From: Planctomycetota bacterium | Lineage (GTDB): Bacteria; Planctomycetota; PUPC01; DSUN01 | Reading direction: 5' to 3' | DNA length: 64,000 bases | Assembly (NCBI GenBank): GCA_035527715.1 | Contig: DATKZY010000187.1 | Coordinates: 49,388 to 113,387 of the forward strand | In this document: positions 8,279 to 64,000 of the stretch, in pieces | How the letters are laid out: the number at the start of each line of letters is the position of its first letter | Numbering within the stretch: position 1 is the first letter of the stretch | Made by a program: the position numbers and the translations under genes | Notes under the pieces: model-generated | What the model was told of the DNA's origin: nothing | The model's database searches: none | The model's input: the letters and a program-made list of their open reading frames with translations, nothing else

Positions 8279-8286
8279 TCTCACAC

Positions 8287-10897: not shown

Positions 10898-10906
10898 ATT
10901 ACTGCG

Positions 10907-33186: not shown

Positions 33187-33208
33187 CTGAGACAAGGGGT
33201 GAGCCAAC

Positions 33209-45216: not shown

Positions 45217-45343
45217 TCAGAGTCGGCCCATTGACTCCGGGGGGCGGTCGGGGTAGTCTATTGTGTTAGTGCGATGGCGGGGCGGGTCAGAAGGCGCGGA
45301 GCCTGGCGTGACACCCGTAACACGAAACCCGGAACAAGGCATC

Positions 45344-46574: not shown

Positions 46575-46622
46575 GCGGCCCCGCGCGGCCGCACGCCAGG
46601 CCCCCGGCGGGAGAATCTGCGA

Positions 46623-49318: not shown

Positions 49319-49723
49319 ATGAGTGCCCCGACGCGACCATCGGTAGAGCGGCGCAGGTATCGGCGCTTCGAGCTCTCCGCGCCCCTCGTCTTCACCGTCA
49401 AGACGAAGGCCGGCACCAGCGTGTCCCACTCCGGCATCACCCGCAACGTGAGCCCCGGCGGCCTCTACTTCTGCACCCTCGCGGCGCAGGATCTCCATCC
49501 ACAGCAAGAAGTTACGGTGAACATCATCGTCCCGCGCCGGGGGAACCCCTCCGAGGCGACCGTGTCCCTCTCTGGCGAGGCGAGGGTCGTTCGAGCCGAG
49601 CGATTGCCTGCGTCGGCCGACGCCTTGGCCCGCGATGGCGAATGGTGGGGGGTCGCCGCGCAGTTCACGGGCCGGCCCCGCGTTGACCTCTCCAGCGTTG
49701 ACGACCTCTTCGGCGGCACGTAG
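49319..49723 (+). CDS. PilZ domain protein (putative c-di-GMP receptor)
   Basis: 134 aa. The RRYRRFEL (RxxxR) and NVSPGGLYF (DxSxxG-like) motifs are correctly spaced. The track ORF starts at 49022, but the upstream part is not protein-like. Confidence 0.7.
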   Translation: MSAPTRPSVERRRYRRFELSAPLVFTVKTKAGTSVSHSGITRNVSPGGLYFCTLAAQDLHPQQEVTVNIIVPRRGNPSEATVSLSGEARVVRAERLPASADALARDGEWWGVAAQFTGRPRVDLSSVDDLFGGT

Positions 49724-50041
49724 CCAACGGCCGTTTCCCACGCGCCGCAGCCATCCCGCGCCGCTCGAGCGGGGGCCTGCTGGGGCCATCGGCGGCCCGG
49801 ATTCCGAAAAACAAGACAGGCCCGCGCTGCGGAGCGGACAACTCGCCTGCCCGGCCGCGCGCCGCGGCGGGCCGGCTGCGGGTCGCCCGCGGAAGCTGCC
49901 GGCGTAAGCTACAGGTGCGTAACGACTTGTGAAGTGCCGCCAGAGCGAGGCCGCGAACTGGTATTTCCGCGTCGGACGGCACGGTTGTTGCAGCCTCCCA
50001 CCACAGGTGTGTGTGGCAGTTGCCTGTGAGGGTCTTTGTCG

Positions 50042-50725
50042 ATGCCAGAGCCGGCAACCATTCTCGTCCTTGGCGGTGGAGCGGGCGCGCTATACCTGCG
50101 CTTCTTCCGCAACCGCTACGCCGAGTTCAAGCGTGCGACTGACATCCTGTTCGCCCTGCCGGGTGTCGCGATCGCGGCCCCGATCACCCTGTTCCTCGCC
50201 CTCCTGGTCAAGCTCACCTCGCGCGGGCCGGCCTTCTACCTCCAGGAGCGGGTGGGCAAGGACGGTAGGGTCTTCAAAATCATAAAGTTACGCACAATGG
50301 TCGCCAACGCCGAGGCGGCCACCGGCCCCGTGTGGGCGGCGGCGAACGACCCGCGCGAAACCTGGCTCGGCCGGATCCTGCGGCGCACCCATCTTGACGA
50401 GTTGCCGCAGTTCTGGAACGTTCTGCGCGGCGACATGAGCCTCATCGGCCCCCGGCCCGAGCGCCCCGTGTTCGTCGAGAAGTTCCGGAGGGAGATCCCC
50501 GGCTACGCCGCGCGCCTCACCGTCCGCCCGGGCATCACCGGCTGGGCACAAGTCAACCACCCCTACGACCGATCCGTCGAGGACGTGCGGCGCAAGGTCG
50601 AGTTCGACGCCGAGTACATCCGTAAAATGGGCTGGGGCATTGACTTGCGCATCATGGCCGCCACCGCCGCCCGCATGCTCAGCCTCCGTTCTCGTCCCGC
50701 CGCCAACGCGGGCAAGCACTCCTGA
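50042..50725 (+). CDS. Polyprenyl-phosphate sugar phosphotransferase (bacterial sugar transferase, WbaP/WcaJ C-terminal domain type; EpsL-like)
   Basis: KRATDILFALPGVAIAAPITLFLALLVKLTSRGPAFYLQERVGKDGRVFKIIKLRTM...DELPQFWNVLRGDMSLIGPRP is the canonical Bac_transf pattern. TTG 50036 is an alternative start. Confidence 0.85.
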   Translation: MPEPATILVLGGGAGALYLRFFRNRYAEFKRATDILFALPGVAIAAPITLFLALLVKLTSRGPAFYLQERVGKDGRVFKIIKLRTMVANAEAATGPVWAAANDPRETWLGRILRRTHLDELPQFWNVLRGDMSLIGPRPERPVFVEKFRREIPGYAARLTVRPGITGWAQVNHPYDRSVEDVRRKVEFDAEYIRKMGWGIDLRIMAATAARMLSLRSRPAANAGKHS

Positions 50726-50897
50726 CGTCCGGCAACCCCCTCTCCCTCCCACGGCCCATCGCACTGTGCTGCGTCTGCCACGCCCGTGGCAGCCCAGGCT
50801 GACCGGTTTGGCTGACACGGTCGGGGATGAGGCCCGCGCGACGAGAAGCTCGCTTCGCGACCACGGGCCAGGCCAGGAGTTCTTGGGGGGAGGTGGG

Positions 50898-50935
50898 CGG
50901 GGAGGGGACTTCCTTGCGAGGAAAGTCCCTCCCCG
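50898..50935. terminator. Strong GC hairpin cGGGGAGGGGACTTCCT-tgcg-AGGAAAGTCCCTCCCCg between convergent genes. It is a putative bidirectional terminator.
   Basis: About 16 bp of stem. It lies 12 nt downstream of the minus-strand TIM-barrel gene stop and about 170 nt downstream of the plus-strand sugar transferase. There is no clear U-tract. Confidence 0.4.
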
Positions 50936-50946
50936 CTGCATTCGTG

Positions 50947-51744
50947 TCAGCCGAGATAGCTTTTCATCGTGGCGAGTTCGCGGGGGAGGTGGGTCTGCCA
51001 GGGCTCCCAGTTGATCCATTCGCCGCTGAGGTAGCCGTCGTAGCCGATGCTGCGGAGGAGCGCGACGGCGCGGCGGTGGTCTATGAAGCCCTGGCCGATG
51101 GGGCAGAGCTGAGTGCCCTTGTCGCCGCGCGTGCCGTCGTGGAAGTGGACGTGGCGGATGTCGGGGCGGAGGACGTCGAACGCCTCGTCCATCGTCATGC
51201 CCGCGGCGTTGACGGGATGCATGATGTCCCAGTTGACGCGGACGTTGGGGTGTCCGACGCGCTCGATGACGGCGGCGAGGTCGTGGGCGTTGCACCAGGA
51301 GTCGTGGGTCTCGACGCAGAGGGTGACGCCGGCGGCGCGGGCCTCGGGGGCGAGGGCGGCGAGGGAGTCGGCGAGCTGCGTCGCGGCGGTGTCGCGGGTC
51401 ATGCCCTGGGGGATGCCGCCTCCGAAGACGCGCATGGTGGGGGCGCCGAGGTCGTGCGCGAGGGCGATGAGGGCGCGGGAGTCGGCCATCATGCGGCTCA
51501 GCTCGGCGGGGGTCGGCGCCGTGTAGGAGCAGGAGGTGGCGAGGCAGGCGATGCCCACGTCGGCGTCCTCGGCCATGCGGCGGAGCAGGGCGCGCTGGCC
51601 CGCGGTGGTGGACGGCTCGACGCCGTGGAGGTGCTTGGCCTGGGCGCGCGGCTCGACGCCGTCGTAGCCCAGGCGGCGGGCCACGTCGAGCACCTCGGCC
51701 CAGGTGAGGTCGGGGCACGAGAAGGTCATGAAGCTGAACTTCAC
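50947..51744 (-). CDS. Sugar phosphate isomerase/epimerase (xylose-isomerase-like TIM barrel)
   Basis: Metal-binding-like motifs CVETHDSW and HVHFHDG are present. AGGAG lies 8 nt upstream of GTG 51744. The track's upstream ATG at 51762 is less likely. Confidence 0.8.
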   Translation of the reverse strand: MKFSFMTFSCPDLTWAEVLDVARRLGYDGVEPRAQAKHLHGVEPSTTAGQRALLRRMAEDADVGIACLATSCSYTAPTPAELSRMMADSRALIALAHDLGAPTMRVFGGGIPQGMTRDTAATQLADSLAALAPEARAAGVTLCVETHDSWCNAHDLAAVIERVGHPNVRVNWDIMHPVNAAGMTMDEAFDVLRPDIRHVHFHDGTRGDKGTQLCPIGQGFIDHRRAVALLRSIGYDGYLSGEWINWEPWQTHLPRELATMKSYLG

Positions 51745-51783
51745 CGGCGAACTCCTAATCATGGCAAGACTCGATCAGCCGGC

Positions 51784-51874: not shown

Positions 51875-54736
51875 CTACTTCGGGAGGGCGAAGAGAATGA
51901 CATGGTCGTCTCCTGCATACGCCACGCGCCGGCCGTTTGGGGAGAACGCGAAGTCGTGCCGCAGCAGAGGGGAAACCGCTTTGGGGTGTTCCATGCGTTC
52001 GAGAGACCGAAAGTGGCCGAGCGCTTGCGGCTTGTCGAGATCCCAGAGCTGCACGACGCACTCGCCGTCGCACGAGAGAAGGCGGCGCGAGTCCGGCGCA
52101 AATGCCACGCGGGCGACATCGGCGGAGGCATTCAGGTCGAAGAGCCGCTGTTCGGCGAGCACATCCCAGACCTGAATGATCATGGGGGAAGCGGCTGCCA
52201 GCATGGCAGCACGCCCTCCGTCGGGGGAAACAGCCGCTATCCCAGCCCCAGGAACCAGAAGATCGGCGATGAACACGTGAGACAGGCTGCCATCCTTCAC
52301 CGACCTCCGCCCGATAGTGGAGCCACCGCACGAGACGATCGAAGAGCCATCGGGGGTGAACCAGACGCGCCAGAAGTCATCAGTGTCCACCAACCGGTCA
52401 CAAGGTTCTGGGCCACCCAGCCACAACGGTTCTCCCGTTGCGGCATTCCAGAGTCTGATCGTCTTGTCATTGGCGCAGGATACGGCGTTTCGCCCGTCCG
52501 GGGAGATGGCCACGCAGTTCGCGAGCGCCGTGTGCCCTTCGAAGGAGCGCAGCTCCCTGTGCGCTTCCCACTCGAGAAGGTGAAGCCTGTTGTCGGCACC
52601 AGGAGCAAGGATCTGTGAGCCGTCCGGAGAGAAGGCCAAGTTGCCACCCGGTGCGAACTGGATGCCCCTTTCAAACCTGGAGGTCACGAGCCCCGTCCCG
52701 GCGTCCAGCACGACGATTTCGTCACCCGAGCCCACTGCGATACGGTCACCCTGGGGTGAGAAAGCGATGCAGTGCAGGTGGGCAAGTGGCCATCGCCACA
52801 GTTCGCCTACGACCTGTTCCTCAATGGCCTGCATGGCCCGCCGGACATTGTCCTTGGTGGGGTCCTTCTGCAGCAAGCCGAGCAGAATGCCGTGGGCCCG
52901 CGACACATCGCCCTTGCTCATAGCTGAGAGCGCCGCGGTGAGGCGTTCGAGCTCGTCGGTCGGGCACCGCGGGTACTCGCTGCCACCGGGGCCCAGGAAG
53001 CGGGTGAATAGCGACGCGAACCCGAAGTCACCCGAATCATCCGGTTTGAAGCCCACCAGCCGCGCTAGGGCCAGGAACCACGCGCCGACGTCACCAGACT
53101 GGGACGCCCTGACCGCGAGTGCCCTGAGTCTCATGAGCTCAGTGGCTTGCCGTTCTGCGTGCGTAAGAGCCTTCTCGGTCTCTGGGCTGCGAAGCTCCTT
53201 CGGAATCTGGTCCAACGCTCCCCACGCCTTCACGTAATCCTGTTTGTCGTAACCAGCCTTGGAGGCGGCTTGTTGGTCGCGGACGGCCTTGGCCAGAAAT
53301 TCGCGGCCCTTCTCGTGGTCCGGCTTGAGTTGCAGGTAACGATGAAGGCTGGTTAGCATGGCCTTCACTTCACCTGCACCGCGCGCTCGGTTGAACTCTT
53401 CGGTCAGCCTCTTGAGCGCCTCCGCGGTCTGGCTCGCGCGGTCTTGAAGTTCATTGATGGCCTTCGTCCGTAGTCGCTCAGGCACCTGCCGGAGGAGAGC
53501 TGCGGCCTGAGCATACTCGTAACGGCCCAGCGCGGCCTTGGCCGCATCACACACATTGCGGACCAGGGGGGCGCCGAGCTCTTCCACCTCATTCAGATAC
53601 GGCCTCAGTTCGAGATAGCGTTCGAGTCTAGGTGCGACGCTGGAGAGTTGGCCCGCCTGGGCGGCTTGCTCGATTTCGGCTCTCAGGCTGGCGAGCTCAG
53701 CGGCCTTGGCGCGGGCGTCGGCAAGAAGGCTCTGAATCTGAGGCGTGCGCAACGGCTCGGGGACCTGTTCCAGCAGCGCCACGGCCTCGGCATACTCGTG
53801 TCTGCCCAGGCATTCCGTGGCGCTGGCGAGGAGCTCGTCGCGCCGGCGCTCAAGCTGGTCGTTCTCGTCACGGACCGCCTGGACGACGCCGCTGGCCCAC
53901 TCGGCGAATGGTTTGAGCCGCGGGTGTTGGAGCGCGGCCATCTCCTCGAGGAGGCGGATGGCCTCGGCGTGCTGGTATCCGCTGCGAAGGGCTTCGACTT
54001 GCTCCTTCCTGGCCTGGAGTTCTCCGATGCGGCTCTGCCGCAGGGCGGGGAGATCGGCGCCGCAGTCGCCGCAGAACCTGTCCCAGGTGGAGTTGGTGTG
54101 GCCGCAGGCCAGGCACGGCTCCTGGAGGGGCTCGCCGCATCCGCCGCAGAACTTCCGGTCCGCCGGGTTCTTGCGGCCGCAGCCGGGGCATTGGCCCGCG
54201 GCCTCGGCGGGGGCAGGGGCCGCGGCTTCGTTTGGCGCGGCGGGAGCGCGCGTCGCTTCGTCCCCCTCCGGCAGCTCGGGGGCGGGCGGAAGGCTCTGGA
54301 CGAGGCGATCTACGTCCGCGCGGAAGGTGCGGCCGGAATTGACCTCTGCGGCATTGCGGAAGGCGAGGGGCTGGAGGTCCAAGGGGAGCTCTTCGGGCCT
54401 CGGCATGGCGGCCCCGTGGACGAGGACGGGGACGACGACGATGCCGCGCGCGAGGGCGAGCTCGATCTCGGCCCGCACGAAGTCCCCGGGGTCATCGAGC
54501 CGCCGTGTGCCGTCCCGGCCAAGCACCGTCAGCCACCTCTGGCCGATGATGGCGAGGAGGACGTGGCACTTGCCCAGCTCCTGCTCAATATGCCGGCGGA
54601 AGTCGGCGCCGTACGGGATCGTGTCCACATCAATGAAGAGCGATTGGGCGCCGAAGCGGGCCTCGAGGTGGTCGTAGATGCGCCCGGTGACGTCGGAGCT
54701 ATCCTCGCGTCGGTAGGAGACGAAAATCTTGGGCAT
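51875..54736 (-). CDS. TIR-domain protein with a double zinc ribbon, a long coiled-coil/helical region and C-terminal WD40 beta-propeller repeats
   Basis: 953 aa. The N-terminus IFVSYRREDS...DFVRAEIELAL has TIR motifs including the conserved Glu. CPGCGRK...CGGCG...CLACGH...CGDCG are two zinc ribbons. WD40-like repeats carry LWN, VWD and LWD motifs. GGGAG is the RBS. Confidence 0.85.
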   Translation of the reverse strand: MPKIFVSYRREDSSDVTGRIYDHLEARFGAQSLFIDVDTIPYGADFRRHIEQELGKCHVLLAIIGQRWLTVLGRDGTRRLDDPGDFVRAEIELALARGIVVVPVLVHGAAMPRPEELPLDLQPLAFRNAAEVNSGRTFRADVDRLVQSLPPAPELPEGDEATRAPAAPNEAAAPAPAEAAGQCPGCGRKNPADRKFCGGCGEPLQEPCLACGHTNSTWDRFCGDCGADLPALRQSRIGELQARKEQVEALRSGYQHAEAIRLLEEMAALQHPRLKPFAEWASGVVQAVRDENDQLERRRDELLASATECLGRHEYAEAVALLEQVPEPLRTPQIQSLLADARAKAAELASLRAEIEQAAQAGQLSSVAPRLERYLELRPYLNEVEELGAPLVRNVCDAAKAALGRYEYAQAAALLRQVPERLRTKAINELQDRASQTAEALKRLTEEFNRARGAGEVKAMLTSLHRYLQLKPDHEKGREFLAKAVRDQQAASKAGYDKQDYVKAWGALDQIPKELRSPETEKALTHAERQATELMRLRALAVRASQSGDVGAWFLALARLVGFKPDDSGDFGFASLFTRFLGPGGSEYPRCPTDELERLTAALSAMSKGDVSRAHGILLGLLQKDPTKDNVRRAMQAIEEQVVGELWRWPLAHLHCIAFSPQGDRIAVGSGDEIVVLDAGTGLVTSRFERGIQFAPGGNLAFSPDGSQILAPGADNRLHLLEWEAHRELRSFEGHTALANCVAISPDGRNAVSCANDKTIRLWNAATGEPLWLGGPEPCDRLVDTDDFWRVWFTPDGSSIVSCGGSTIGRRSVKDGSLSHVFIADLLVPGAGIAAVSPDGGRAAMLAAASPMIIQVWDVLAEQRLFDLNASADVARVAFAPDSRRLLSCDGECVVQLWDLDKPQALGHFRSLERMEHPKAVSPLLRHDFAFSPNGRRVAYAGDDHVILFALPK

Positions 54737-55099
54737 CGGCCACTCCCGCGGGGCCGCGCTCGTGCGCTTCCAGCACAGGCTCGCGACACAAGGGTAGCCT
54801 GAGACGCTGGCCGTGTCAAGTGAGTCCGATGCGGGGCAGGAGCGGGGAGAGCCAATCGAGCGATCTTACAGGGGCCTAGCTGCCCATGCGCACACACGAG
54901 ATCGCTGTTCCGCAGCGGCAGGGAGATTCTACCAAGCTTGCCGAAGGGAAAAGCTCGCTTGCTTTGCCCGCGCCAATCCGCTACCCTATGCACGCGGCTG
55001 GTGAGCACAGGAGCGACGCGTGGCAGCTTACCCCTGGTATCTCATCTCGGAACGAGTCCAGCGCCTCTACGGGAAAGCGGGGGGATAGGAGGGCCGCTC

Positions 55100-56965
55100 G
55101 TGTTCAGAAGGAAGCCCATCGTGCTCTGCTGCTGCTGCCTTCTGGGGAGAGCACTCGCCGGCGCGGGGGAGCCCGACGCGGCGGCCCCCGACACGGCCAT
55201 CCTCAAGACCCTTCGGCCGGGCCACCCGCGCCTGGTCGCGCTCGAGGCGGACCTCGCGCGGGTGCGGGAGATGATCGCGAAGGAGGCGCTGGCCAGGGAG
55301 TACCACGCCGCGCTGCGCGCGCAGGCCGAGCGCTACGTGAAGGAGCCGGTGCTGGAGTACAAGCTCGTCGGCCCGCGGCTCCTGCACGTGAGCCGCGCGG
55401 CGTGCGACCGCATCTACACCCTCGGCCTCCTGTTCCGCCTCGACGGCCACGCGGAGTTCGCCGACCGAGCCGTCCGCGAGCTCGTGAACGTGTGCGGGTT
55501 CAAGGACTGGCATCCCTCGCACTTCCTCGACACGGCCGAGATGACGCACGCGGCGGCGATCGGCTACGACTGGCTCCACGACAGGCTCACGGCCGAGCAG
55601 CGCCGCGCCGTGGTGGACGCCATCGTGGCGAAGGGGCTGCTGCCCGCGAAGAAGGTGTACGACGGCGGCGGCTGGTGGTCGCGCTCGACGCACAACTGGA
55701 ACCAGGTGTGCAACGGCGGCATCGCCATCGGCGCCCTGGCCGTGGCCGACGAGCGGCCCGAGCTGGCCGCCGAAATCCTCGCCGCCGCCCGCGCCTCCAT
55801 CGTGCGCGCCATGCGTAGCTACGAGCCCGAGGGCGGCTGGAACGAGGGCCCCGGCTACTGGCACTACGCCACCCGCTACAACGTCTACTACCTGGCCGCG
55901 CTCCAGACGGCGCTGGGCACGGACCTCGGCCTGATCCGCGAGATGCCCGGGTTCGCGAAGGCGGGCGACTTCCGCCTCTACTTCGCCGGGCCCGTGGGCC
56001 GCACGTTCAACTACGCCGACGCGGGCGACCGCACCGGTCGCGCCGCCGAGATGTTCTGGCTCGCCCGCACCCTCGACGCGCCGCGCTATGCGTGGCACGA
56101 GCGGTCCTGCGACGGACGCCCCGACGCCCTCGACCTCCTGTGGTTCGACCCGCGCGGCCAGGGGCCGAAGGCGGAGGTGTGGCCCCTCGACCGCTGGTTC
56201 CGCGGCGTCGAGGTCGCCTTCCTCCGCTCGGTCTGGGAGGACCGCGACGCCGTCTTCGTGGGTTTCAAGGGTGGCGACAACCGCGCCAACCACTCGCACC
56301 TCGACCTGGGGACCTTCGTGCTCGACGCCCTCGGCGTCCGCTGGGCGCTCGACCTCGGCGGCGACAACTACAACCTGCCCGCCTACTTCGGCGGCAAGCG
56401 CTGGACCTACTACCGCCTGCGCACCGAGGGCCATAACACCCTGACCCTCGGCGGCGAGAACCAGGACCCCGCCGCGAAGGCGCCCATCCTCGCCTTCGCC
56501 TCGTCGGAGGCTCGGGCATTCGCCGTCGCCGACCTCTCGCGCGCCAACAAGGGCGCCGCTCGCTGGTGGCGCGGCATCGCGCTCCTCGACCGCCGCGAGG
56601 TGCTCGTCCAGGACGAGGTCGAGTTGAAGGCACCATCGGATGTCGTGTGGGCGATGCACACCCCGGCGGTCGTGCAGGTCGCCGGCGCGACGGCCACGCT
56701 CAAGGTGGGGGAGGCCTGTCTGCGAGCATGGGTTCTGGAGCCGGCGGGGGCGAGGTTCGAAACCGCCTCGGCCACGCCGCCGAAGCCTCAGGCCCAGAAC
56801 GAGGGCGTGAGCCGCCTGTTCATCCGGTTGGCGGGGGCCAAGGAGGCGCGGGTCGCCGTGCTCCTCACGCCCTATCGCGGACCCGCGCCGCCGCCGACGG
56901 GCCGAGACGTCGTGCCGTTGAAGCAGTGGATCGCGGAGACGCCGGGCTCCGCCACCAGGCCGTGA
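55100..56965 (+). CDS. Secreted heparinase II/III-like family protein (polysaccharide lyase-like; DUF4962 + Hepar_II_III)
   Basis: The signal peptide is MFRRKPIVLCCCCLLGRALA. GGWNEGPGYWHYAT and ANHSHLDLGTFVLDALGVRWALDLG match the heparinase II/III C-terminal domain. It starts at GTG 55100 after GGAGGG. Confidence 0.8.
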   Translation: MFRRKPIVLCCCCLLGRALAGAGEPDAAAPDTAILKTLRPGHPRLVALEADLARVREMIAKEALAREYHAALRAQAERYVKEPVLEYKLVGPRLLHVSRAACDRIYTLGLLFRLDGHAEFADRAVRELVNVCGFKDWHPSHFLDTAEMTHAAAIGYDWLHDRLTAEQRRAVVDAIVAKGLLPAKKVYDGGGWWSRSTHNWNQVCNGGIAIGALAVADERPELAAEILAAARASIVRAMRSYEPEGGWNEGPGYWHYATRYNVYYLAALQTALGTDLGLIREMPGFAKAGDFRLYFAGPVGRTFNYADAGDRTGRAAEMFWLARTLDAPRYAWHERSCDGRPDALDLLWFDPRGQGPKAEVWPLDRWFRGVEVAFLRSVWEDRDAVFVGFKGGDNRANHSHLDLGTFVLDALGVRWALDLGGDNYNLPAYFGGKRWTYYRLRTEGHNTLTLGGENQDPAAKAPILAFASSEARAFAVADLSRANKGAARWWRGIALLDRREVLVQDEVELKAPSDVVWAMHTPAVVQVAGATATLKVGEACLRAWVLEPAGARFETASATPPKPQAQNEGVSRLFIRLAGAKEARVAVLLTPYRGPAPPPTGRDVVPLKQWIAETPGSATRP

Positions 56966-56994: not shown

Positions 56995-58347
56995 TTACTT
57001 CGTCGCGTTCACCGTCCCATCGCTGTTGCGGACAGGGAGCCAGACGCTGAGGCCCTCATCCGCAATCCGTGGGGACGGGGACTTGCCGGCGGGCCTGTTG
57101 TCGAACAGGCAACTGCGGTCGCCCCATTCGTAGCTCACGATGTCCATGATGTTGTGCGGCATCGCGCGGCCGTCGAAGTAGAGGCAGGCGGTGCGCTTGT
57201 TGTGGCGCGGCACAGGCCGCCACGCGTTATTGTAATCGGGCAGACCCATGCCGTCGGGCGACGGGGTGTAGCGGGAGTAGAATGCCTTGTAGTATCCGAT
57301 GCGCTTCTTCGACAGCCAGTACACGTCGCTCCAGGCCAGATCCACGCCGGTGTAGAGCGGCGAGAGCGGGTAGCGGGTGTAGCCCATCCAGCACTCGGCG
57401 GCGAAGCCGCTGGTGTGCTCGGCCCACTCCAGGGGCGGGTGCGTCTCTTCGGTTGGCAGCCACGCGTCGGGCAGGCCGGCCATGACCTGCTGGTAGCCCC
57501 ACACGGGGTCGTTCGTGACCAGCCCGGTGTCGCACACGGCGATCTGCTGGCTGGGGATGGTCAGGGTGCCGAAGTGGACGGATTGCCCGTACCAGAGGAT
57601 GGGCGCCGCCGCCGACTCGCCGAGCATGTAGCACGGATAGGGCCTGAAGCCCTTGGGCTCGGTCGTCTCGGCGCCAGTCGTGTAGGGCCAGCAGAACTGG
57701 TCCTGCGAGGTGTCCTTGAGCGCTTTGGTGCCCGCATTCGCGTCGCGGCAGGCCCAGGAGGGGTAAACGTCCGCGTACTTCACCTTGTCAAAGGGGTAGA
57801 TGATCGACTCCCCGAACGGTGCCGCGTAGTTGTAGCCGTAGCCGAGCACGGCCTGCTTCTTGGCCGGGCAGGAGTACATCATGCACAGCCGGGCGATTTC
57901 CATGTAGATATACGTGTCGTCCTTCACGTCCGAGGGCCTCTTGCCCGTGCGCGCGCAGTAGGCGGTCAACGCGTTCTTCCACGTGGCGCTGGGGTTGACG
58001 TAGGGCGCCAGGGCGACGTACCAGAAGGGGAACTTGCCGCCGGTGACGATTTTCGTGGCATCTATGAGGCTCATGGGGGGCTCGCGGAAGGGGCCGCTGG
58101 TCGCCGACAGCTTCGTCGGGGCCCCCGCGGACACCATCCAGGAGTCAAAGTCCTTGTTGTAGTTCGTGAATGCCTGGCCCATCTGGCGCATGTTGCTCAG
58201 GCAGTTCGTGAGATCGGCCGTGCCCAAGGCATAGATGATGGCCGGCAGCAGCAGGCCGGCAAGGATCGTGATGATGCCGATCACGACGAGGAGCTCGACC
58301 AGGGTGAACCCCTGCGACCGCGATCTCGTAAGTGCTGTGATACTCAT
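56995..58347 (-). CDS. DUF1559 family protein with an N-terminal prepilin-type cleavage/methylation motif
   Basis: The N-terminus MSITALTRSRSQGFTLVELLVVIGIITILAGLLLPA is a class III signal with a type IV pilin-like N-methylation site. The C-terminal LYFDGRAMPH resembles the HX9DG region. Confidence 0.85.
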   Translation of the reverse strand: MSITALTRSRSQGFTLVELLVVIGIITILAGLLLPAIIYALGTADLTNCLSNMRQMGQAFTNYNKDFDSWMVSAGAPTKLSATSGPFREPPMSLIDATKIVTGGKFPFWYVALAPYVNPSATWKNALTAYCARTGKRPSDVKDDTYIYMEIARLCMMYSCPAKKQAVLGYGYNYAAPFGESIIYPFDKVKYADVYPSWACRDANAGTKALKDTSQDQFCWPYTTGAETTEPKGFRPYPCYMLGESAAAPILWYGQSVHFGTLTIPSQQIAVCDTGLVTNDPVWGYQQVMAGLPDAWLPTEETHPPLEWAEHTSGFAAECWMGYTRYPLSPLYTGVDLAWSDVYWLSKKRIGYYKAFYSRYTPSPDGMGLPDYNNAWRPVPRHNKRTACLYFDGRAMPHNIMDIVSYEWGDRSCLFDNRPAGKSPSPRIADEGLSVWLPVRNSDGTVNATK

Positions 58348-59636
58348 AGCTTAGGACCCCTGTGTTGCAGTCTCACCCCTACCTCGCTTCGCGCACTCCT
58401 CCCCGCCCTCATTATATCCCCGTGGCTCTTGCCTTGTCAAGCAATTCGCGCCGCTTTCCGGGGATTTGCGCTTTCGCCCTCGCCCGGTATAATCGCGCCC
58501 TCGTGTCCCGCAGTTCGGGCTTGCGGGAGAGCCCACGACAGGGGTTGGCAGGATGTGGCGAGCGTTTGCTCTGGCACTCGTTGTGCGGGCAGCAGGGGCG
58601 TGCGCGCCGAGGCATGCACGGCCCAAGGCCATGCCCAGTCCCGTGCCGCCCGCGCGAGCGGCGCCCGAGAGCAGGGGAGGGGAGGCCCCGCCGCTCTCCG
58701 CCTCCGCCGCGAGCCGTGACCCTCCTCGACTCGCCGTTTGGCGATTCTCGCCCTTCTGGCCAAGCGTTTCCCAAGCTCCCCGGCCTCGCGACTCGAGAAT
58801 CGGCGATCCTCGGCCTTCCGGCTCAAGGTCCCCCAAGCTCCCCATACTCCCCACTTCTGCGCCCCCTGGGGTCAGGCCGCAACTTACAACTTAACTGCCG
58901 TGGCACCCAACATGTTGTGGTGGCCTCCTAGCTGACCACAATATAGCCTAACTCGCCTGAGTCGCCTGACTCGCCGGTTCATGGGGGAGGTCCCGCCCGC
59001 CGCCGCGGAGCCGAGCCGGCAGTGGCAGAGAGCCGTCCACAGATTTCGCCGATGGACACAGATGAAAGTCGACGGTTGTCCAGTGTCCACCGGCCACTGC
59101 ATAGCGCGTCTAACTGGTCTTCTACAGTTGCTTTCCCTATCTATCCGCTTGGCAAGGGGTTAGGGAAATGCGAAATGGTGTTGGCACTACAGGAGCCTGA
59201 TCCAGCGATGGGGCGGGCCGGTGGTTCACCGACGAGTTCGGGGGACGCCTTACTCGATTGCCGCGACAGAGAGAAGAAGTGGCAGGGGAATGGGGGCAGG
59301 GGAATGGGGGAGGGAAGACCGCCTGAAGGCGGGACTACGAACAGGCAGCGCGGCGAAGCGAATCATGACCAGTCGTGAGCGATGCGTGAGCCCTTGGAGT
59401 GCGGCGGCTTGACGCCGCTTTCCATGCCGTCGAGAGCGGGGCGCTGAGCCCAAGGTCTTTGGAACGCGGCATCGAGATGCCGCACTCCGAAAGGCTGCCG
59501 CACGGCACGCGCCGCCGCGGTTCTCCCTTTGGCTCCATTCCCTTGTCCCACATTCCCTTGTCGTTCCTCTTCCTGCGCCGAGAGGGGAGGGTCGGTGTCT
59601 CGGCAACACGCCCGCTGAAGAGGGGAGGCCACTGTT

Positions 59637-59657
59637 CTGAAATCGGCAATCGCAAAT
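59637..59657. repeat. Heptanucleotide array TCTGAAA TCGGCAA TCGCAAA, intergenic
   Basis: Same unit family as 26124 and 28251. It lies about 160 nt upstream of the 59816 gene. Confidence 0.7.
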
Positions 59658-59696
59658 TTTTCCAAGCCCCCCTCCCCCACTGCCCCCCGCCCCGCG

Positions 59697-59706
59697 CCCC
59701 CCCCCC
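59697..59706. repeat. Homopolymeric C10 tract within a C-rich stretch upstream of the giant secreted gene
   Basis: ccccctcccccactgccccccgccccgcgCCCCCCCCCCgtgggg, 110 nt upstream of ATG 59816 and about 85 nt upstream of TATATAT. Confidence 0.7.
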
Positions 59707-59791
59707 GTGGGGCCATTCTGAGCGAGGCGAGATGCTTCGCAGGGCCTCAGCATGACCGACTGATGTCGTGTTGCGCTCGGCGGGCAATCGC

Positions 59792-59798
59792 GCTATAT
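59792..59798 (+). promoter_or_regulatory. Putative -10 element TATATAT followed by AAGGAAG RBS and ATG 59816
   Basis: cgcTATATATtAAGGAAGacccccTATG. The AT-rich hexamer is unusual in this GC-rich DNA. Confidence 0.3.
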
Positions 59799-59815
59799 AT
59801 TAAGGAAGACCCCCT

Positions 59816-62800
59816 ATGTCCCCCACGGAGAAGCCGATGCTTCGTGCCTGTCTCGCCTGCGTGCTTGCGATGGCGGCGTTCGCCGCGGAGGCGGCCGCCC
59901 CTCGACGCGCTCGGGGCGCCGTGAGCCTGCCGAGCGCCGCCGACCCCGCGTACTACGTGAAGAAGGCCACGTGGCAGGAAACGATGCTGGCCTCGCGCGA
60001 GGCCCTGGCCACGGCCCAGGCCGAGGCGCCCAAGGAGTCGGCCTTCAAGCCCTATGTGACAGGCGTCATTCGCGGCGGCCAGCCCGCTCAGCAGATTTCC
60101 CTCGATGTGTCCACGCTCGACCAGCTCTGGCTCCTGGCCGACGTGGGCGACGACAACTACGATTCCGACCAGGCCATCTGGGGCGAGCCCACGCTCGTCG
60201 CCAGGGACGGCACCAGGGTGCCCCTCACCACGCTCAAGCCCGTCTCGGTCAAGGTCGGCTGGGGCAACCTGATCGTCAACAACAACCACACCAAGGCTGG
60301 CCTCCGCATCGCCAACAAGAAGTACGAGCATGGCTTCTGGGCCCACGCCCCGAGCGCCCTGTGCTTCGCTCTGGGCAAGAAATACGTGAGGTTCGAGGCC
60401 TGGGCCGGCATTGACGCGACGGCGACCTCGCACGGCTCGGTGAGGTTCCACGTGCTCGACAAGGCCGGCCGCACGAGCGACCTCGATGCCCTCTGGTCGC
60501 TCGTGGGCCGCGACTTTCCCAACGCCAGCCGCGAGATGCAGTGGGAGCGCCAGGACCGCATCTGGGACGACGATTGGCGGCCTGGCGACCTCGCCATGCT
60601 CGGCGCCCGCTACGCGAAGTGCGCGGCGACCCGAGCCAAATCCATGGCCGCCGAGGCCCAGAAGCTTGCGCCCGCTGTGGCCGATGCCGTGGCCCTTCAG
60701 AAGGTGCGCGAGCTGTACTACCGCGCGCACACCATCGAGGAGAACCTGGCGAAGCTGGGCGACCTGAAGTTCGAGCCCCTCCGCCTCGCCCTCGCCGACC
60801 TCATCGAGACCCACGGCGACACGTATCCCAAGGGCCGCGAGTTTCTCCAGCGCCTCGACGCACTCGAGAAGTCGGCCTCGGCCGACGACAAGGCGGCGGA
60901 CCCCGAGCGCAAGGCGAAACTCGTCGAAGAGTTCGAGTCACTCAAGCGCGAGGCGCTGCTCGCCAATCCGCTGCTCTCGTTCGACAAGCTGCTTGTCGTG
61001 CGCCGCAGCGCGCGCAACCTCGCCCTGCCCGCCAACTGGCAGGGCAACTCGTGCCTGCCCCGCAGCGGACTCGACAACGAGATCGCCATCCTCTCGCTCC
61101 GCGCTGTGGGCGGGGCGTCCCTGCCCCGCGTCCAGACCCTCTACAAGCCCGAGGGCGGCAGGTTCGTGGGCGATGTGGACCTGCATTTCGATGCCGACCG
61201 CCTGCTCTTCTCCTCGCTCGACGCGAAGAACAAATGGCAGGTCTTCGAGATGACGCTCAAACCTCCCGCGGGTTCGCAACCCGCGGGAGGTTATCCCATC
61301 CGCCAGCTCACCGGCGAGCAGCCCGACGTGGACAGCTACGACGCCTGCTACCTGCCCGACGGCCGCATCATGTTCTGCTCGACCGCGCCCTTCGTCGGCG
61401 TGCCCTGCGTCTTCGGCTCCTCGCACGTCGCCATGCTCTACCGCATGGACGCCGACGGCAAGAACATCCGCCAGCTCTGCTTCGAGCAGGACCACGACTG
61501 GTGCCCCGCCGTGCTCAATAACGGCCGCGTGCTCTACCTCCGCTGGGAGTACACCGACACGCCGCACTCGCAGACCCGCATCCTCTTCCACATGAACCCC
61601 GACGGCACCGAGCAGATGGAGTACTACGGCAGCAACTCGTACTGGCCGAACGGCGTCTTCTACGCCCGCCCGATCCCCAATCACCCGACAAAGGTCGCGG
61701 GCATCGTGACCGGCCACCACGGCGTGCGGCGGATGGGCGAGCTGGTGATCTTCGACCCCGGCAAGGGGCGCCACGAAGCATCGGGCGCCATCCAGCGCAT
61801 CCCCGAGCGCGGCAAGGAGGTCGAGCCAATCATCCGCGACGGCCTGGTCAACGCCTCCTGGCCGAAGTTCCTCCACCCCTATCCCCTCAGCGACAAGTAT
61901 TTCCTCGTCGCCTGCCAGCCCACGGCGAAGTCACTCTGGGGCCTCTACCTGGTGGACACGTTTGACAACATGCTCCTCCTGCACGAGGAGCCGGGCTACG
62001 CAATCCTCGAGCCCGTGCCGCTCCAGAAGACCCTCAAGCCGCCCGTCATCCCCGACAAGGCCGACCCGAAGCGCAAGGACGCCGTGGTGTACATGGTGGA
62101 CGTCTACCAGGGCGACGGCCTGAAGGGCGTGCCGCGCGGCACGGTGAAGAAGCTGCGCATCTTCTCCTACCATTTCGCCTACCACGGCATGGGCGGCCTG
62201 CTCGGCGTGGTGGGCATGGACGGCCCGTGGGACCCGAAGCGGATCGTGGGCACGGTGCCCGTCGAGAGCGACGGGTCGGCGCTCTTCCGCGTGCCGGCCA
62301 ACACGCCCATCTCCATTCAGCCGCTCGATGCCGAGGGCAAGGCGCTTCAGCTCATGCGAAGCTGGATGACCGCCATGCCCGGCGAGGTGCTCTCGTGCGT
62401 CGGCTGCCACGAGCGGCAGAACAGCTCGCCGCCCGCGAGGCAAACGCTCGCCCAGGCCAGGCCGCCCGCCGAGATCGAGCCCTGGCGCGGCCCCGCACGC
62501 GCCTTCAGCTATCCCCGCGAGGTCCAGCCGGTCATTGACAAGTATTGCATTGGCTGCCACAACGGTGAGAAGCGGCCCGATGGCAAGGTGGCCGCCGACC
62601 TCCGCGGCGACAAGCGCCTCGCCGACTTCAGGCTCGTCACGCCCGGCAACGGCGGCGGCAACGCAGGCCGCTTCTCCGTCGGATACGGCGAGCTCCACCG
62701 CTACGTCCGCCGCAACGGCATCGAGGGCGACTACCACCTGCTCACGCCCCTGGAGTTCCACGCCGACACCACGGAGCTCGTCCAGCTCCTCCAGAAGGGC

Positions 62801-64000
62801 CACTACGGCGTGAAGCTCGACGCCGAGGCCTGGGACCGCTTGGTCACCTGGATTGACCTCAACACCCCCTACTATGGCACCTGGACCGACATGGGCCACA
62901 ACCCTGGCAAACAGCGCGAGCGGCGCCTCGAGCTGGCCCGGCTCTACGCCAACCTCGACACCGACCCCGAAGCCGACGCCGGTCAGCCCCCCGCCAAGCT
63001 CCAGGACCCGACCCCCCCTCCCCTTCCCTCTGCCGTACCCGAACACCGAACACCGAACACCGATGGCCCGGCTTTGGCCGGCTGGCCCTTCGACAAGGCC
63101 GAGGCCCAGCGTCGCCAGGCCGCCTTGGGTGTGGCGACGCGCTCGGTCGAGCTCGCGCCCGGGGTCAAGCTCGACCTCGTCCTCATCCCCGCCGGCGAGT
63201 TCCTCATGGGCGACCCCAGCGGCTCGCCCGACGAGCAGCCCGTCCACCGCGTCAAGATCGAGCGGCCCTTCTGGATGGGCCGCTGCGAGGTCTCCAACGA
63301 GCAGTTCGCCTGCCACGATTCCGCCCACGATAGCCGCGTGGAGGACAAGAATACCTACCAGTTCGGCGTCCACGGCTACCCCTGCAACGAGCCCAAGCAG
63401 CCCGTCGTCCGCCTCTCGTGGCACCAGGCCGTGGCTTTCTGCGAGTGGCTCTCGAAGAAGACCGGCGAGCACGTCACCCTGCCGACGGAGGCCCAATGGG
63501 AGTGGGCCTGTCGGGCAGGGACGGCCACGCCCTTCTGGTATGGTGGCCTCGACGCCGATTTCTCGAAGTGCGCCAACATGAGCGACGCCAAGATGCGCGA
63601 GTTCGCCAGCAACCCCTACACCATCTGGCAGCCCCAGCCCAACGCCACGAAGTACGACGACTGGATTCCCAAGGACACCCGCTTCAACGACGGCTATCTC
63701 GTGGCTGCCCCCATCGGCACCTACCAGCCCAACCCCTGGGGCCTCGCCGACATGCACGGCAACATGGCCGAATGGACCCGCTCACCCCATCGCCCCTACC
63801 CGTCCGACGGTTCGGTCACGCGTCACGCGTCACGCGTCACTGAACCCGCTGCGGCCACGCGCTACGTCGTCCGCGGCGGCTCCTGGCGCGATCGTCCCTA
63901 CCGCTGCACCTCCGCCTATCGCCTCGCCTACCCCGCCTTCCAGCGCCCCTACAACGTCACCTTCCGCATCGTGTCCGAGGGCCTCGTCAAGACCGCGGCG
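59816..64000 (+). CDS. Large secreted multidomain protein, 3'-truncated at the window end: signal peptide, NPCBM-like carbohydrate-binding domain, beta-propeller-like middle, two CXXCH motifs, C-terminal FGE-sulfatase (SUMF1/formylglycine-generating-enzyme-like) domain
   Basis: I translated this by hand from 59816 and found no stop to 64000; GC3 is high throughout. The NPCBM-like part is VKVGWGNLIVNNNHTKAGLRIANKKYEHGFWAHAPSALCF...GSVRFHVLD. CVGCHE and CIGCHN are the CXXCH motifs. FGE motifs include RVKIERPFWMGRCEVSN...HQAVAFCEWLS...RGGSWRDRP. It contains a family-B hairpin at 61262..61290 and a GTCACGC array at 63815..63842. Confidence 0.75.
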   Translation, partial: MSPTEKPMLRACLACVLAMAAFAAEAAAPRRARGAVSLPSAADPAYYVKKATWQETMLASREALATAQAEAPKESAFKPYVTGVIRGGQPAQQISLDVSTLDQLWLLADVGDDNYDSDQAIWGEPTLVARDGTRVPLTTLKPVSVKVGWGNLIVNNNHTKAGLRIANKKYEHGFWAHAPSALCFALGKKYVRFEAWAGIDATATSHGSVRFHVLDKAGRTSDLDALWSLVGRDFPNASREMQWERQDRIWDDDWRPGDLAMLGARYAKCAATRAKSMAAEAQKLAPAVADAVALQKVRELYYRAHTIEENLAKLGDLKFEPLRLALADLIETHGDTYPKGREFLQRLDALEKSASADDKAADPERKAKLVEEFESLKREALLANPLLSFDKLLVVRRSARNLALPANWQGNSCLPRSGLDNEIAILSLRAVGGASLPRVQTLYKPEGGRFVGDVDLHFDADRLLFSSLDAKNKWQVFEMTLKPPAGSQPAGGYPIRQLTGEQPDVDSYDACYLPDGRIMFCSTAPFVGVPCVFGSSHVAMLYRMDADGKNIRQLCFEQDHDWCPAVLNNGRVLYLRWEYTDTPHSQTRILFHMNPDGTEQMEYYGSNSYWPNGVFYARPIPNHPTKVAGIVTGHHGVRRMGELVIFDPGKGRHEASGAIQRIPERGKEVEPIIRDGLVNASWPKFLHPYPLSDKYFLVACQPTAKSLWGLYLVDTFDNMLLLHEEPGYAILEPVPLQKTLKPPVIPDKADPKRKDAVVYMVDVYQGDGLKGVPRGTVKKLRIFSYHFAYHGMGGLLGVVGMDGPWDPKRIVGTVPVESDGSALFRVPANTPISIQPLDAEGKALQLMRSWMTAMPGEVLSCVGCHERQNSSPPARQTLAQARPPAEIEPWRGPARAFSYPREVQPVIDKYCIGCHNGEKRPDGKVAADLRGDKRLADFRLVTPGNGGGNAGRFSVGYGELHRYVRRNGIEGDYHLLTPLEFHADTTELVQLLQKGHYGVKLDAEAWDRLVTWIDLNTPYYGTWTDMGHNPGKQRERRLELARLYANLDTDPEADAGQPPAKLQDPTPPPLPSAVPEHRTPNTDGPALAGWPFDKAEAQRRQAALGVATRSVELAPGVKLDLVLIPAGEFLMGDPSGSPDEQPVHRVKIERPFWMGRCEVSNEQFACHDSAHDSRVEDKNTYQFGVHGYPCNEPKQPVVRLSWHQAVAFCEWLSKKTGEHVTLPTEAQWEWACRAGTATPFWYGGLDADFSKCANMSDAKMREFASNPYTIWQPQPNATKYDDWIPKDTRFNDGYLVAAPIGTYQPNPWGLADMHGNMAEWTRSPHRPYPSDGSVTRHASRVTEPAAATRYVVRGGSWRDRPYRCTSAYRLAYPAFQRPYNVTFRIVSEGLVKTAA
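61262..61290. repeat. Palindromic element family B, second copy: CCTCCCGCGGGTT-cgc-AACCCGCGGGAGG, in-frame within a CDS
   Basis: A 13-bp perfect stem, identical to 33158..33186 except for one compensatory pair (A-T becomes G-C). It encodes KPPAGSQPAGGYP. Confidence 0.75.
63815..63842. repeat. Heptanucleotide array GTCACGC x3 + GTCACTG, in-frame in the FGE-domain gene
   Basis: It encodes SVTRHASRVTEP. The same array occurs at 38187. Confidence 0.8.

Follow-up and report, generated by a model that had tools for sequence, protein, structure and literature searches.

A predicted exported c-type cytochrome of the HzsA superfamily with a PvdO-like C-terminal domain

What kind of protein joins a glycan-binding module, a propeller-like middle, two CXXCH haem motifs and a formylglycine-generating enzyme (FGE) domain, and what might it do? 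The question is raised by a gene at the end of the window, the 64,000-nucleotide stretch of Planctomycetota DNA analysed here, in which that combination had been noticed from the letters and translations. Frame 1 runs without a stop for 1,395 codons from 59816 to the window end, with a GC3 of 0.91 in a window of 70% GC. The remainder comes from a metagenome contig with 100% identity across 17 kb, in which the gene ends 18 nt beyond the window with the tail KPTSR and a stop codon. The JGI gene call places the start at the ATG at 59816, while the NCBI record of the protein begins at Met8 and has 1,393 residues. Since the full length is 1,400 residues, the protein, previously described as giant, is better called large. 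It is encoded by one intact gene for an exported multidomain protein, and every domain and motif named in the sequence-only reading is present (Table 1).

Table 1. Features of the gene and its product, in window coordinates
Feature	Residues	Position	Strand	Basis or remark
Shine-Dalgarno-like AAGGA		59802..59806	+	9 nt ahead of ATG; read from sequence
Coding sequence	1-1,400	59816..64000	+	frame 1 open, then 18 nt past window
Sec-type signal peptide	~1-27	59816..59896	+	basic n-region, hydrophobic 11-24, AEA-A site; by inspection
NPCBM (CBM51-like) beta-sandwich	~88-215	60077..60460	+	Pfam PF08305, AlphaFold strands
All-helical linker domain	222-382	60479..60961	+	eight helices; model; 35% mean identity
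TolB/HzsA-like beta-propeller	~391-735	60986..62020	+	
Hairpin, perfect 15-nt arms, 3-nt loop		61260..61292	+	in frame in propeller loop; encodes PPAGSQPAGG
HZS_alpha middle domain	775-866	62138..62413	+	Pfam PF18582, E 2e-33; first haem motif at its end
CXXCH-1 (CVGCH)	861-865	62396..62410	+	counterpart of HzsA haem alphaI motif CSGCH
Helical haem-2 domain	~895-1050	62498..62965	+	helices in model
CXXCH-2 (CIGCH)	911-915	62546..62560	+	counterpart of HzsA haem alphaII motif CAMCH
CCGAACA x3.6 heptamer array		63039..63063	+	low-confidence, poorly conserved linker; encodes PEHRTPNTD
FGE-fold, PvdO-like domain	1120-1386	63173..63973	+	without catalytic Cys pair
GTCACGC x3.7 heptamer array		63815..63840	+	variable surface loop, FGE-like domain; encodes VTRHASRVT

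From N- to C-terminus the protein comprises a signal peptide, an NPCBM module, a helical spacer, a six-bladed-type propeller (the propeller-like middle being a beta-propeller in the AlphaFold model), an HZS_alpha domain with haem 1, a helical haem-2 domain, a linker and a PvdO-type FGE fold. The model covers 1,189 residues with a pLDDT of 85, and its pTM of 0.82 suggests that the domains hold a fixed mutual arrangement. The N-termini of homologs resemble the signal peptide, and the protein is probably periplasmic or surface-exposed. The NPCBM assignment, already made from sequence, is confirmed by Pfam (residues 135-214, E 2e-23, 83 bits against a cut-off of 24) and accompanied by modelled strands at 92-214 with pLDDT above 90; the Foldseek match of this region to CBM51 is weak (E 0.098). 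For the all-helical domain that follows, Foldseek found no known relative.

Homology to HzsA, the hydrazine synthase alpha subunit of Kuenenia stuttgartiensis (PDB 5C2V), extends over the propeller, the middle domain and the two CXXCH motifs. Chain A/D of that structure is the top Foldseek match (E 4e-21, about 808 columns, target-normalised TM 0.60), and 5C2V_A is the sole PDB match of the family profile (E 1.2e-11), the alignment being collinear across all of these elements, with the HZS_alpha domain falling on HzsA chain residues 485-561. Both proteins are exported and share the N-terminal beta-propeller, HZS_alpha and two c-type haem motifs in identical order at about 14% identity. Because they align with the alphaI and alphaII haem sites of the solved HzsA, the CXXCH motifs are credible c-type haem sites in a cytochrome context. 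Chance would supply 0.009 such motifs per shuffled sequence, at least two occurred in none of 20,000 shuffles, and both are invariant among 66 homologs. Pfam also gives a weak Cytochrome_CBB3 match at residues 902-932, and the invariant His996 is a candidate distal haem ligand. Taken together, these features mark the protein as an exported multidomain c-type cytochrome of the HzsA superfamily, as judged by comparison of sequence and modelled structure. The sequence-only reading made no mention of hydrazine synthase alpha.

The likeness to HzsA has clear limits. The NCBIfam hydrazine_alpha model gives 35 bits against an equivalog cut-off of 800, and 50 residues, rather than about 100, separate the haem motifs. 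Tyr591, the iron ligand in HzsA (PMC12758564), has no equivalent at or near position +4 after CXXCH-1, where the window protein reads CVGCHERQNSSPP and the family consensus is CHExQNTxPP. No beta-gamma (HzsBC-like) partner is encoded in the window or near the genes of the closest relatives. On the low score, the absent tyrosine and the partnerless locus we reject identity as hydrazine synthase; nor is the host an anammox organism, as far as the window shows. A related nitrogen chemistry, with NO, hydroxylamine, ammonia or another small nitrogen compound handled at haem 1, would accord with homology over the whole core and both haem motifs in register, but we regard it as distinctly unlikely: score, ligand and motif spacing all count against it, published analyses find that homologs outside the anammox bacteria do not retain key HZS residues (PMC12758564), and it leaves no role for the carbohydrate modules or the FGE-like domain, the NPCBM, helical and FGE-like domains being additions relative to HzsA. 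The HZS-like alpha / beta-gamma pairs of non-anammox organisms (Hagglund et al. 2025, PMC12758564; Dalcin Martins et al. 2023, PMC10732223) are likewise HzsA-like cytochromes, and one FGE-fused member is listed in a supplementary BLAST table of that literature, yet the two papers describe neither the fusion nor carbohydrate modules, and the FG-GAP/CRTAC1 and ABC genes linked to HZS-like clades I-III are not among the ranked recurrent neighbour clusters of the present family. No function has been demonstrated for this family or for any non-anammox HzsA homolog (PMC12758564, PMC10732223).

The C-terminal FGE-sulfatase domain stands as first described (Pfam E 2e-40), sharing its fold and Pfam family with SUMF1/FGE and retaining the equivalents of the human structural cysteines C218 and C235 and the GN..EW calcium-site motif. 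It differs in its fusion to a cytochrome, in the deletion or replacement of human residues ~150-200, which we take to be part of the substrate groove, and in a 40-residue insertion elsewhere. The copper-binding pair Cys336/Cys341, on which the proposal of an FGE-type enzyme had been made to depend, is missing; the single Cys that follows GGSW is kept in 44 of 66 homologs and is Ala, Ser or Gly in the other 22. The suggested analogy with EgtB/OvoA fares no better, Pfam and NCBIfam searches finding no DinB iron domain. Lacking both, the domain is neither a formylglycine-generating enzyme nor a non-haem-iron sulfoxide synthase of the EgtB/OvoA type, and both candidates were rejected. A sulfatase maturase might still operate independently of copper, the FGE-like domain binding CxPxR and the haems carrying out the oxidation in the periplasm. 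Domain homology favours this, the phyla concerned are known to be rich in sulfatases, and 5 of about 39 neighbourhoods contain sulfatase genes, although by rough reasoning that is not above expectation for sulfatase-rich genomes. With the cysteine pair and the human ~150-200 segment gone, the lone Cys replaceable, the carbohydrate modules unexplained and the domain closer to PvdO than to FGE, we consider it highly improbable.

By sequence comparison the nearer relative is indeed PvdO, a periplasmic Pseudomonas protein (PDB 5HHA) that likewise lacks the FGE cysteine pair and shares in alignment a W-x-(D/E)-x-P loop after the GG(S/N)(W) motif. PvdO is needed for an oxidation step, and the purified protein has no cofactor and is inactive, an electron-transfer partner being suspected (PMC6206403). 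Unlike the fused domain studied here, it stands alone (about 285 residues) within pyoverdine clusters; no pvd genes are present at this locus, the NCBIfam PvdO model gives 107 bits where its cut-off is 500, and the family-specific HDSR...YQFG.HGYP segment is missing from PvdO. As for other versions of the fold, the T9SS context of the non-catalytic PorK/GldK is lacking, the window holds neither the DGR template repeat nor the reverse transcriptase expected of a variable protein such as TvpA, and the FGE-like domain is strongly conserved rather than hypervariable.

Homologs number in the hundreds, at 50-85% identity, in Planctomycetota, Verrucomicrobiota (including Kiritimatiellae and Lentisphaerae), Bacteroidota and Armatimonadota, phyla of glycan degraders. 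Within this large, widespread and uncharacterised family the window protein is unexceptional, and the domain combination, at first thought unusual, is what defines the family. Averaged over several phyla, identity reaches 70% in the propeller, 78% in the middle domain, 66% in the haem-2 region and 63% in the FGE-like domain, whereas the CBM, helical domain and linker lie near 35%, a pattern that fits conserved chemistry with variable targeting. Among the N-terminal modules are NPCBM, F5/8 type C, CBM6, LamG and a SASA carbohydrate esterase, and some members have none; such variation makes the link to glycans drawn earlier plausible. A non-catalytic role, in which the CBM and a C-type-lectin-like FGE fold bind ligands or partners while the haems pass electrons along, in the manner of a scaffold for extracellular or periplasmic electron transfer, would suit the PATR, PKD and additional cytochrome c domains of giant relatives, which are typical of surface proteins, and the invariant Met847 and Met854 before CXXCH-1 and His996 after CXXCH-2, which could make the haems six-coordinate. 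It is nevertheless unlikely, since the FGE-like domain comes close to the haem core in conservation, whereas true binding modules diverge or are swapped out, since it carries invariant family-specific polar residues (the HDSR motif, Asp1359 and His1314), and since the HzsA counterpart of haem 1 is the catalytic site (PMC12758564).

Gene context varies. The heparinase II/III homolog noted upstream exists (54938-56965, + strand, Hepar_II_III_C E 1e-13) and ends 2.85 kb away, but an opposite-strand gene intervenes and the arrangement is not conserved even in an 83%-identical ortholog; no conserved neighbours were found at the window locus or in the closest relatives. In Bacteroidota the gene shares its operon with that of an IclR regulator and is near sugar-catabolic genes, although carbohydrate genes are very common in these phyla and some adjacency may be chance. 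Ten of 39 related loci, from three phyla, have an HzsBC-like gene for a fused propeller/di-haem protein 0-6 kb away and on the same strand. Such partners adjoining many family members lend the nitrogen-chemistry reading some weight, as does a RidA/FkbO-like gene in the Bacteroidota operons, RidA-family proteins being enamine/imine hydrolases. Besides HzsBC, the matches of the partner gene take in MauG, MbnH and further MauG-like families, and MauG-family enzymes modify partner proteins. One could therefore envisage a MauG-type partner installing a protein-derived cofactor in the propeller or FGE-like domain, an amine or alcohol being oxidised there and electrons passing to the haems; the RidA/FkbO-like neighbour would be compatible with an imine intermediate, and quinohaemoprotein amine dehydrogenase has a similar set of di-haem, propeller and small catalytic unit. 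This is very unlikely, as the partner is missing from 29 of the 39 loci and from the window, and no Cys/Trp pattern of the CTQ or TTQ kind came to notice.

We favour, with a probability of roughly 0.55, a glycan-targeted periplasmic haem oxidoreductase of the hydrazine-synthase-like superfamily. The variable N-terminal module would tether the protein to glycan, and the substrate would be held at haem 1, at the interface of propeller and middle domain, and/or in the strongly conserved PvdO-like pocket. Haem 2 would exchange electrons with a partner in the periplasm, which at roughly one in four related loci is probably the adjacent HzsBC-like protein with its propeller and MauG/CCP-type di-haem domain. 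Were that partnership true, the pair would form a two-component hydrazine-synthase-like enzyme acting on a different, probably carbohydrate-derived, substrate.

The hairpin and the GTCACGC array reported within the gene both lie in its reading frame and leave it unbroken. A second copy of the hairpin is intergenic (33156-33188), and for the loop with the GTCACGC array the model has a pLDDT under 50 (model residues 1127-1137). As repeats, the hairpin and the heptamer arrays inside the frame are genuine and recur across the genome.

The propeller-like middle of the protein encoded from position 59816 of the window, together with its two CXXCH motifs, is a homologue of the anammox hydrazine synthase alpha subunit (HzsA; PDB code 5C2V), with a propeller, the HZS_alpha middle domain and two haem motifs in HzsA order. 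When an AlphaFold model (residues 207-1395, 66 homologues as input; mean pLDDT 84.9, pTM 0.82) was compared with the PDB using Foldseek, chains A and D of 5C2V ranked first with an E-value of 4e-21 over about 808 aligned columns, the TM score normalised to HzsA being 0.60 and the sequence identity about 14%. A profile of the core built from ten homologues had 5C2V_A as its sole PDB match (E-value 1.2e-11), with matches in the same order from the propeller across the middle domain to the two haem motifs. The first motif, CVGCH at residue 861 (numbered from the ATG at 59816), aligned with CSGCH of haem alphaI, and the second, CIGCH at residue 911, with CAMCH of haem alphaII. Both are invariant among 66 homologues; shuffled versions of the protein contained a mean of 0.009 CXXCH motifs, and at least two were seen in none of 20,000 trials. 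By the alignment, the two motifs are homologous to the proven haem sites of 5C2V, and the protein is predicted to be a c-type cytochrome with attached haem. Since they align, in register, where a solved relative binds covalent haem, they lie in a cytochrome context rather than in a non-cytochrome fold. The sequence-only reading had proposed haem-binding motifs behind a propeller-like middle, and the Foldseek and profile matches to the HzsA propeller bear out the latter as well.

In spite of this homology, it is not a hydrazine synthase that the gene encodes. It scores 35 bits against the NCBIfam hydrazine_alpha model, for which the cut-off is 800. At haem alphaI of HzsA, Tyr591 is the iron ligand and His587 and Cys303 bind zinc, according to PMC12758564. 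This Tyr has no counterpart behind the first motif, where the following ten residues (CVGCHERQNSSPP) contain no Tyr and the family consensus reads CHExQNTxPP. Further, the haem motifs are 50 residues apart, compared with about 100 in HzsA, and tblastn found no hzsB- or hzsC-like gene in the 64-kb window or in the 1 kb downstream. Nitrogen chemistry of the hydrazine synthase kind, which the shared scaffold and haem sites would favour and the missing Tyr ligand and the closer motif spacing would not, is unlikely.

The reading frame (frame 1) runs for 1,395 codons without a stop up to the end of the window. Sequence from beyond it, the obtaining of which had been recommended earlier, places the gene end 18 nt further on (NCBI protein P0001 is identical and metagenome contig L086 is 100% identical over 17 kb), giving a product of 1,400 amino acids from the ATG at 59816 or 1,393 from Met8, the start in the NCBI call. 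An AAGGA motif lies upstream of the first ATG, third-position GC in the gene is 0.91 in a window of 70% GC, and the N-terminus resembles, by inspection, a signal peptide for export. The domains initially read from the sequence, i.e. the NPCBM module, the two CXXCH motifs and an FGE-sulfatase domain, are all present by Pfam and motif position. The NPCBM/CBM51 module scores 83 bits against a Pfam gathering score of 23.9, its best stretch covering profile positions 3-82 of 137, and forms a β-sandwich in a confident AlphaFold model; a Foldseek match of the N-terminal region to CBM51 (2VNG) was weak (E-value 0.098, rank 50). A fold search with the N-terminal 400 amino acids gave nothing at E < 1e-3, and these include a helical domain without a matched relative. 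A search for regulatory RNAs with Rfam across 58000-64000, covering the upstream region and the inside of the gene, returned nothing at E <= 0.1.

Features of the protein and of the window (aa, residues of the protein; other positions are nucleotides of the window)
Feature	Position	Strand	Details
NPCBM	aa 135-214		Pfam, E 2e-23
HZS_alpha	aa 775-866		Pfam, E 2e-33
FGE-sulfatase	aa 1120-1386		Pfam PF03781, E 2e-40
Spacer	58348-59815		1.4 kb, upstream of gene; no convincing ORF
Direct repeat, 62 nt x2	58727-58850		In spacer upstream of gene
GGCAGGGGAATGGG x2.5	59281-59314		In spacer upstream of gene
C-rich tract	59666-59706		In spacer upstream of gene
Promoter, perfect TTGACA-18-TATAAT	58440-58411		Towards opposite-strand DUF1559 gene
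Heparinase II/III-like gene	54938-56965		Further upstream
953-aa protein gene	51875-54736	-	TIR, double zinc ribbon, WD40 repeats; GC lower, 62-65%
Exosortase (EpsH) cluster	45263-51762		Polysaccharide deacetylase/DUF3473, EpsI, PilZ, sugar transferase, xylose-isomerase-like TIM barrel gene
Direct repeat, 298 nt, 81% identity	46237-46534 and 46609-46906		Inside exosortase cluster stretch
Palindromic element	61260-61292		In gene, in frame
Palindromic element	33156-33188		Intergenic
Second hairpin family, arms about 28 nt	21780-21846, 22770-22825, 26218-26284, 38463-38529		GGGGTCACATCTTCATTTGGCAC...GTGCGAAATGAAGATGTGACCCC; four copies
GTCACGC array	63815-63840		In gene
Period-7 arrays (positions)	1393, 7861, 8249, 9802, 17976, 28252, 34436, 34518, 38188, 45848, 59666, 63039, 63815		TRF

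The C-terminal domain has the FGE fold, its closest solved relative being the pyoverdine protein PvdO. A PDB sequence search returned PvdO at an E-value of 1e-21 and FGEs at about 1e-11, and Foldseek matched FGEs at about 1e-11. Against the NCBIfam PvdO model the score is 107 bits with a cut-off of 500, and no pvd genes were seen among the neighbours in the window. FGE activity, as originally suggested, is not supported, since the Cu(I)-binding Cys336/Cys341 pair of FGE (SUMF1) is missing. In the family alignment, for which the human FGE sequence was checked against 1Y1E (100% match), human Cys336 falls opposite a gap or, if the gap is disallowed, opposite the invariant Asp1359. After the invariant RGGSW comes a single Cys (residue 1364), kept in 44 of 66 homologues and replaced by Ala, Ser or Gly in the other 22. 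Pro1361 is, like Asp1359, invariant in the FGE-like domain of the family, and the W-G-E-P-P loop of PvdO is paralleled by a similar W-x-D-x-P. A haem-coupled sulfatase maturase would agree with the fold and would disagree with the loss of the catalytic pair; it is highly improbable.

The EgtB/OvoA type of non-haem iron chemistry fares no better. An EgtB, OvoA or SenA sulfoxide or selenoxide synthase would have, N-terminal and next to its FGE-like part, a DinB-like domain whose iron site is formed by three His residues. Pfam detected none, and the NCBIfam scores, which involve the FGE-like part only, are far below the cut-offs (EgtB 46 bits against 360, SenA 47 against 420, OvoA 30 against 400). 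The database name ‘nonheme iron enzyme’ rests on membership of these families, and the data speak for a haem protein without a non-haem-iron site. Assignment as a DGR variable protein, with an FGE-type C-lectin, was rejected as well, since nowhere in the window is the 3' end region of the gene directly repeated, as a template repeat would require.

Mean identity across phyla is 63% for the FGE-like domain, 66-78% for the haem core and about 35% for the carbohydrate-binding module, the helical domain and the linker. In place of human FGE residues at about 150-200, the family has its own invariant segment, HDSR...YQFG.HGYP. To judge from these comparisons the FGE-like domain is not a freely evolving binding module, because its conservation is near that of the haem core and it bears invariant, family-specific polar residues. 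A non-catalytic role for the protein, in binding or as an electron conduit, would sit well with the carbohydrate modules and paired haems and less well with this conservation, and we consider it doubtful. PvdO is needed for a periplasmic oxidation, was inactive and without cofactor when purified, and is suspected to rely on an external electron-transfer system (PMC6206403). The cytochrome fusion is suggestive for PvdO biology. It may help to explain how cofactor-less FGE folds of the PvdO type take part in oxidations, c-type cytochromes being suggested as their redox partners.

The gene typifies a large conserved family in which an HzsA-like di-haem cytochrome is combined with carbohydrate modules and an FGE fold of the PvdO type. 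A word-index search with the protein, limited to E <= 1e-10, yielded 687 proteins; the top 120 of these, at 51-100% identity, all contain HZS_alpha and FGE-sulfatase, so that the domain combination, first described as unusual, is in fact common. With the core alone, an exhaustive search recovered 5,968 clusters at E <= 1e-3 and 1,580 at E <= 1e-30 (counted as 50%-identity representatives). Species-representative genomes of Planctomycetota, Verrucomicrobiota (Limisphaerales, Opitutaceae, Kiritimatiellae, Lentisphaerae and Victivallales), Bacteroidota (including the cultured Carboxylicivirga sediminis JR1) and Armatimonadia contain full-length relatives. The N-terminal module varies, being NPCBM, F5/8 type C, CBM6, LamG, a SASA carbohydrate esterase or nothing at all, a pattern familiar from carbohydrate-active enzymes, in which glycan-binding heads are exchanged on a catalytic body that is itself conserved. 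In the group of homologues P0127, P0198 and P0208, some join the core and FGE-like domain to the SASA esterase and others reach 2,800-3,200 amino acids and also have PATR, PKD and further cytochrome c domains. Several genomes contain two or more paralogues (L007 with L019; L013 with L022), which in one case lie near each other on a single contig (L006, 60-2819 and 7257-11294). The gene in the window is itself of low interest, and a moderate interest lies in the unexplored enzyme family. Hydrazine synthase is regarded as a biochemical singleton of debated origin; the HzsA scaffold is seen here in thousands of clusters outside anammox bacteria, in this family with a PvdO-like domain and carbohydrate modules. 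The family thereby offers a tractable way into the chemistry of hydrazine synthase-like enzymes on other substrates.

Clustering of all flanking ORFs from 39 full-length loci revealed one recurrent neighbour, a protein of about 600 amino acids that joins a YncE/YVTN propeller to a di-haem domain of the CCP/MauG type. Among NCBIfam models it matches the hydrazine synthase beta-gamma fusion best (HzsBC; 112 bits, cut-off 1250). At 10 of the 39 loci, in three phyla, this HzsBC-like gene is on the same strand at a distance of 0-6 kb. In Bacteroidota the family gene forms part of a same-strand operon, the order at locus L041 (2353-11963) being IclR, HzsBC-like, FkbO/RidA-like, a 236-aa TAT-signal protein, a Mal s 1-like propeller and the HzsA-FGE gene; in L041 the HzsBC-like gene spans 3167-4951 and the HzsA-FGE gene 7941-11963. 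Loci L038 (285-11222), L033 and L031 share with it the IclR, HzsBC-like, FkbO/RidA-like, 226-236-aa protein and HzsA-FGE genes; the 226-236-aa protein has no family match, its TAT-like signal being present in the L041 copy. DhaK/DhaL and an LsrF-type aldolase also occur in the L038 and L033 operons, and glycoside hydrolases, sugar transporters and kinases surround the Bacteroidota operons. Two papers record hydrazine synthase-like alpha and beta-gamma pairs outside anammox bacteria and regard their function as unknown (PMC12758564; PMC10732223). The searched text of both leaves the FGE fusion undescribed; one FGE-fused protein figures as a weak match in a supplementary table.

Our general reading, to which we assign a probability of roughly 55%, is that of a periplasmic or surface haem oxidoreductase of the HzsA type. 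Substrate would bind at haem 1, at the interface of propeller and middle domain, and/or in the conserved PvdO-like pocket; haem 2 would serve as an electron relay, and the N-terminal module would tether the enzyme to a glycan. Tentatively, the family may represent the alpha-type subunit of a two-component haem enzyme resembling hydrazine synthase, taken over for another use in PVC and Bacteroidota bacteria that degrade glycans. Here the HzsBC-like propeller/MauG-type di-haem partner would make or activate an intermediate, or install a cofactor. Oxidation of a carbohydrate-derived, possibly N-bearing substrate would be completed by the HzsA-like haem site together with the PvdO-like domain, and the swappable N-terminal module would hold that substrate. 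Such a two-component enzyme, if real, would constitute a new class of periplasmic oxidoreductase, give non-anammox hydrazine synthase homologues their first function and offer a lead to the mechanism of PvdO-type domains. An enzyme of the quinohaemoprotein kind, its cofactor installed by MauG, would suit the MauG-type domain of the partner, and would suit less well the absence of that partner from the window and from 29 of the 39 loci; it is distinctly unlikely.

In the window the gene stands alone in its locus, preceded by a repeat-rich spacer and then by an opposite-strand DUF1559/N-methyl gene, beyond which lie the heparinase-like gene, the TIR-WD40 gene, with an architecture that we take to be associated with defence or signalling proteins, and the exosortase/EPS cluster. 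The downstream neighbour, a gene for 257 amino acids to which Pfam gave no match, is unrelated to its counterpart in position beside an 83%-identical orthologue. An operon partner in this genome was considered and rejected, the upstream gene being on the opposite strand behind the spacer and the downstream gene unconserved. Neighbours differ entirely in the 83%-identical orthologue and likewise in two 55%-identical relatives, and the adjacency of the heparinase II/III gene, invoked in the sequence-only reading, therefore carries no weight. Of that reading's interpretation, the cytochrome context of the haem motifs stands, while FGE/EgtB catalysis, rarity and the heparinase link fall.

The repeats within the gene do not bear on protein function. 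The in-frame hairpin and GTCACGC array noticed initially are both present. The hairpin is a perfect palindrome with 15-nt arms (AACCTCCCGCGGGTT-nnn-AACCCGCGGGAGGTT; predicted -30 kcal/mol) that lengthens a propeller loop by about nine codons (PPAGSQPAGG). Homologues of 83% and 70% identity keep it and an 81%-identical one lacks it; this independence of overall identity among close homologues suggests a mobile or recurrent element. Its behaviour is that of a small element of REP/RPE type which the reading frame tolerates. The palindrome was also noted at about 7890-7930 of locus L001. The second hairpin family is probably the other one named initially. TRF located 13 period-7 arrays across the window, in genes and spacers, and the papers searched contained nothing on heptanucleotide repeats in Planctomycetota. 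Apparent copy-number polymorphism near a CCGAACA array in contig L087 was dismissed, the differences being error-rich contig-end sequence. Perfect heptamer arrays of at least three copies number four, with none expected, and other periods from 5 to 12 gave none. Two of the four are in the gene, in low-confidence, poorly conserved loops, and homologues have heptamer-type peptide repeats at these two sites.
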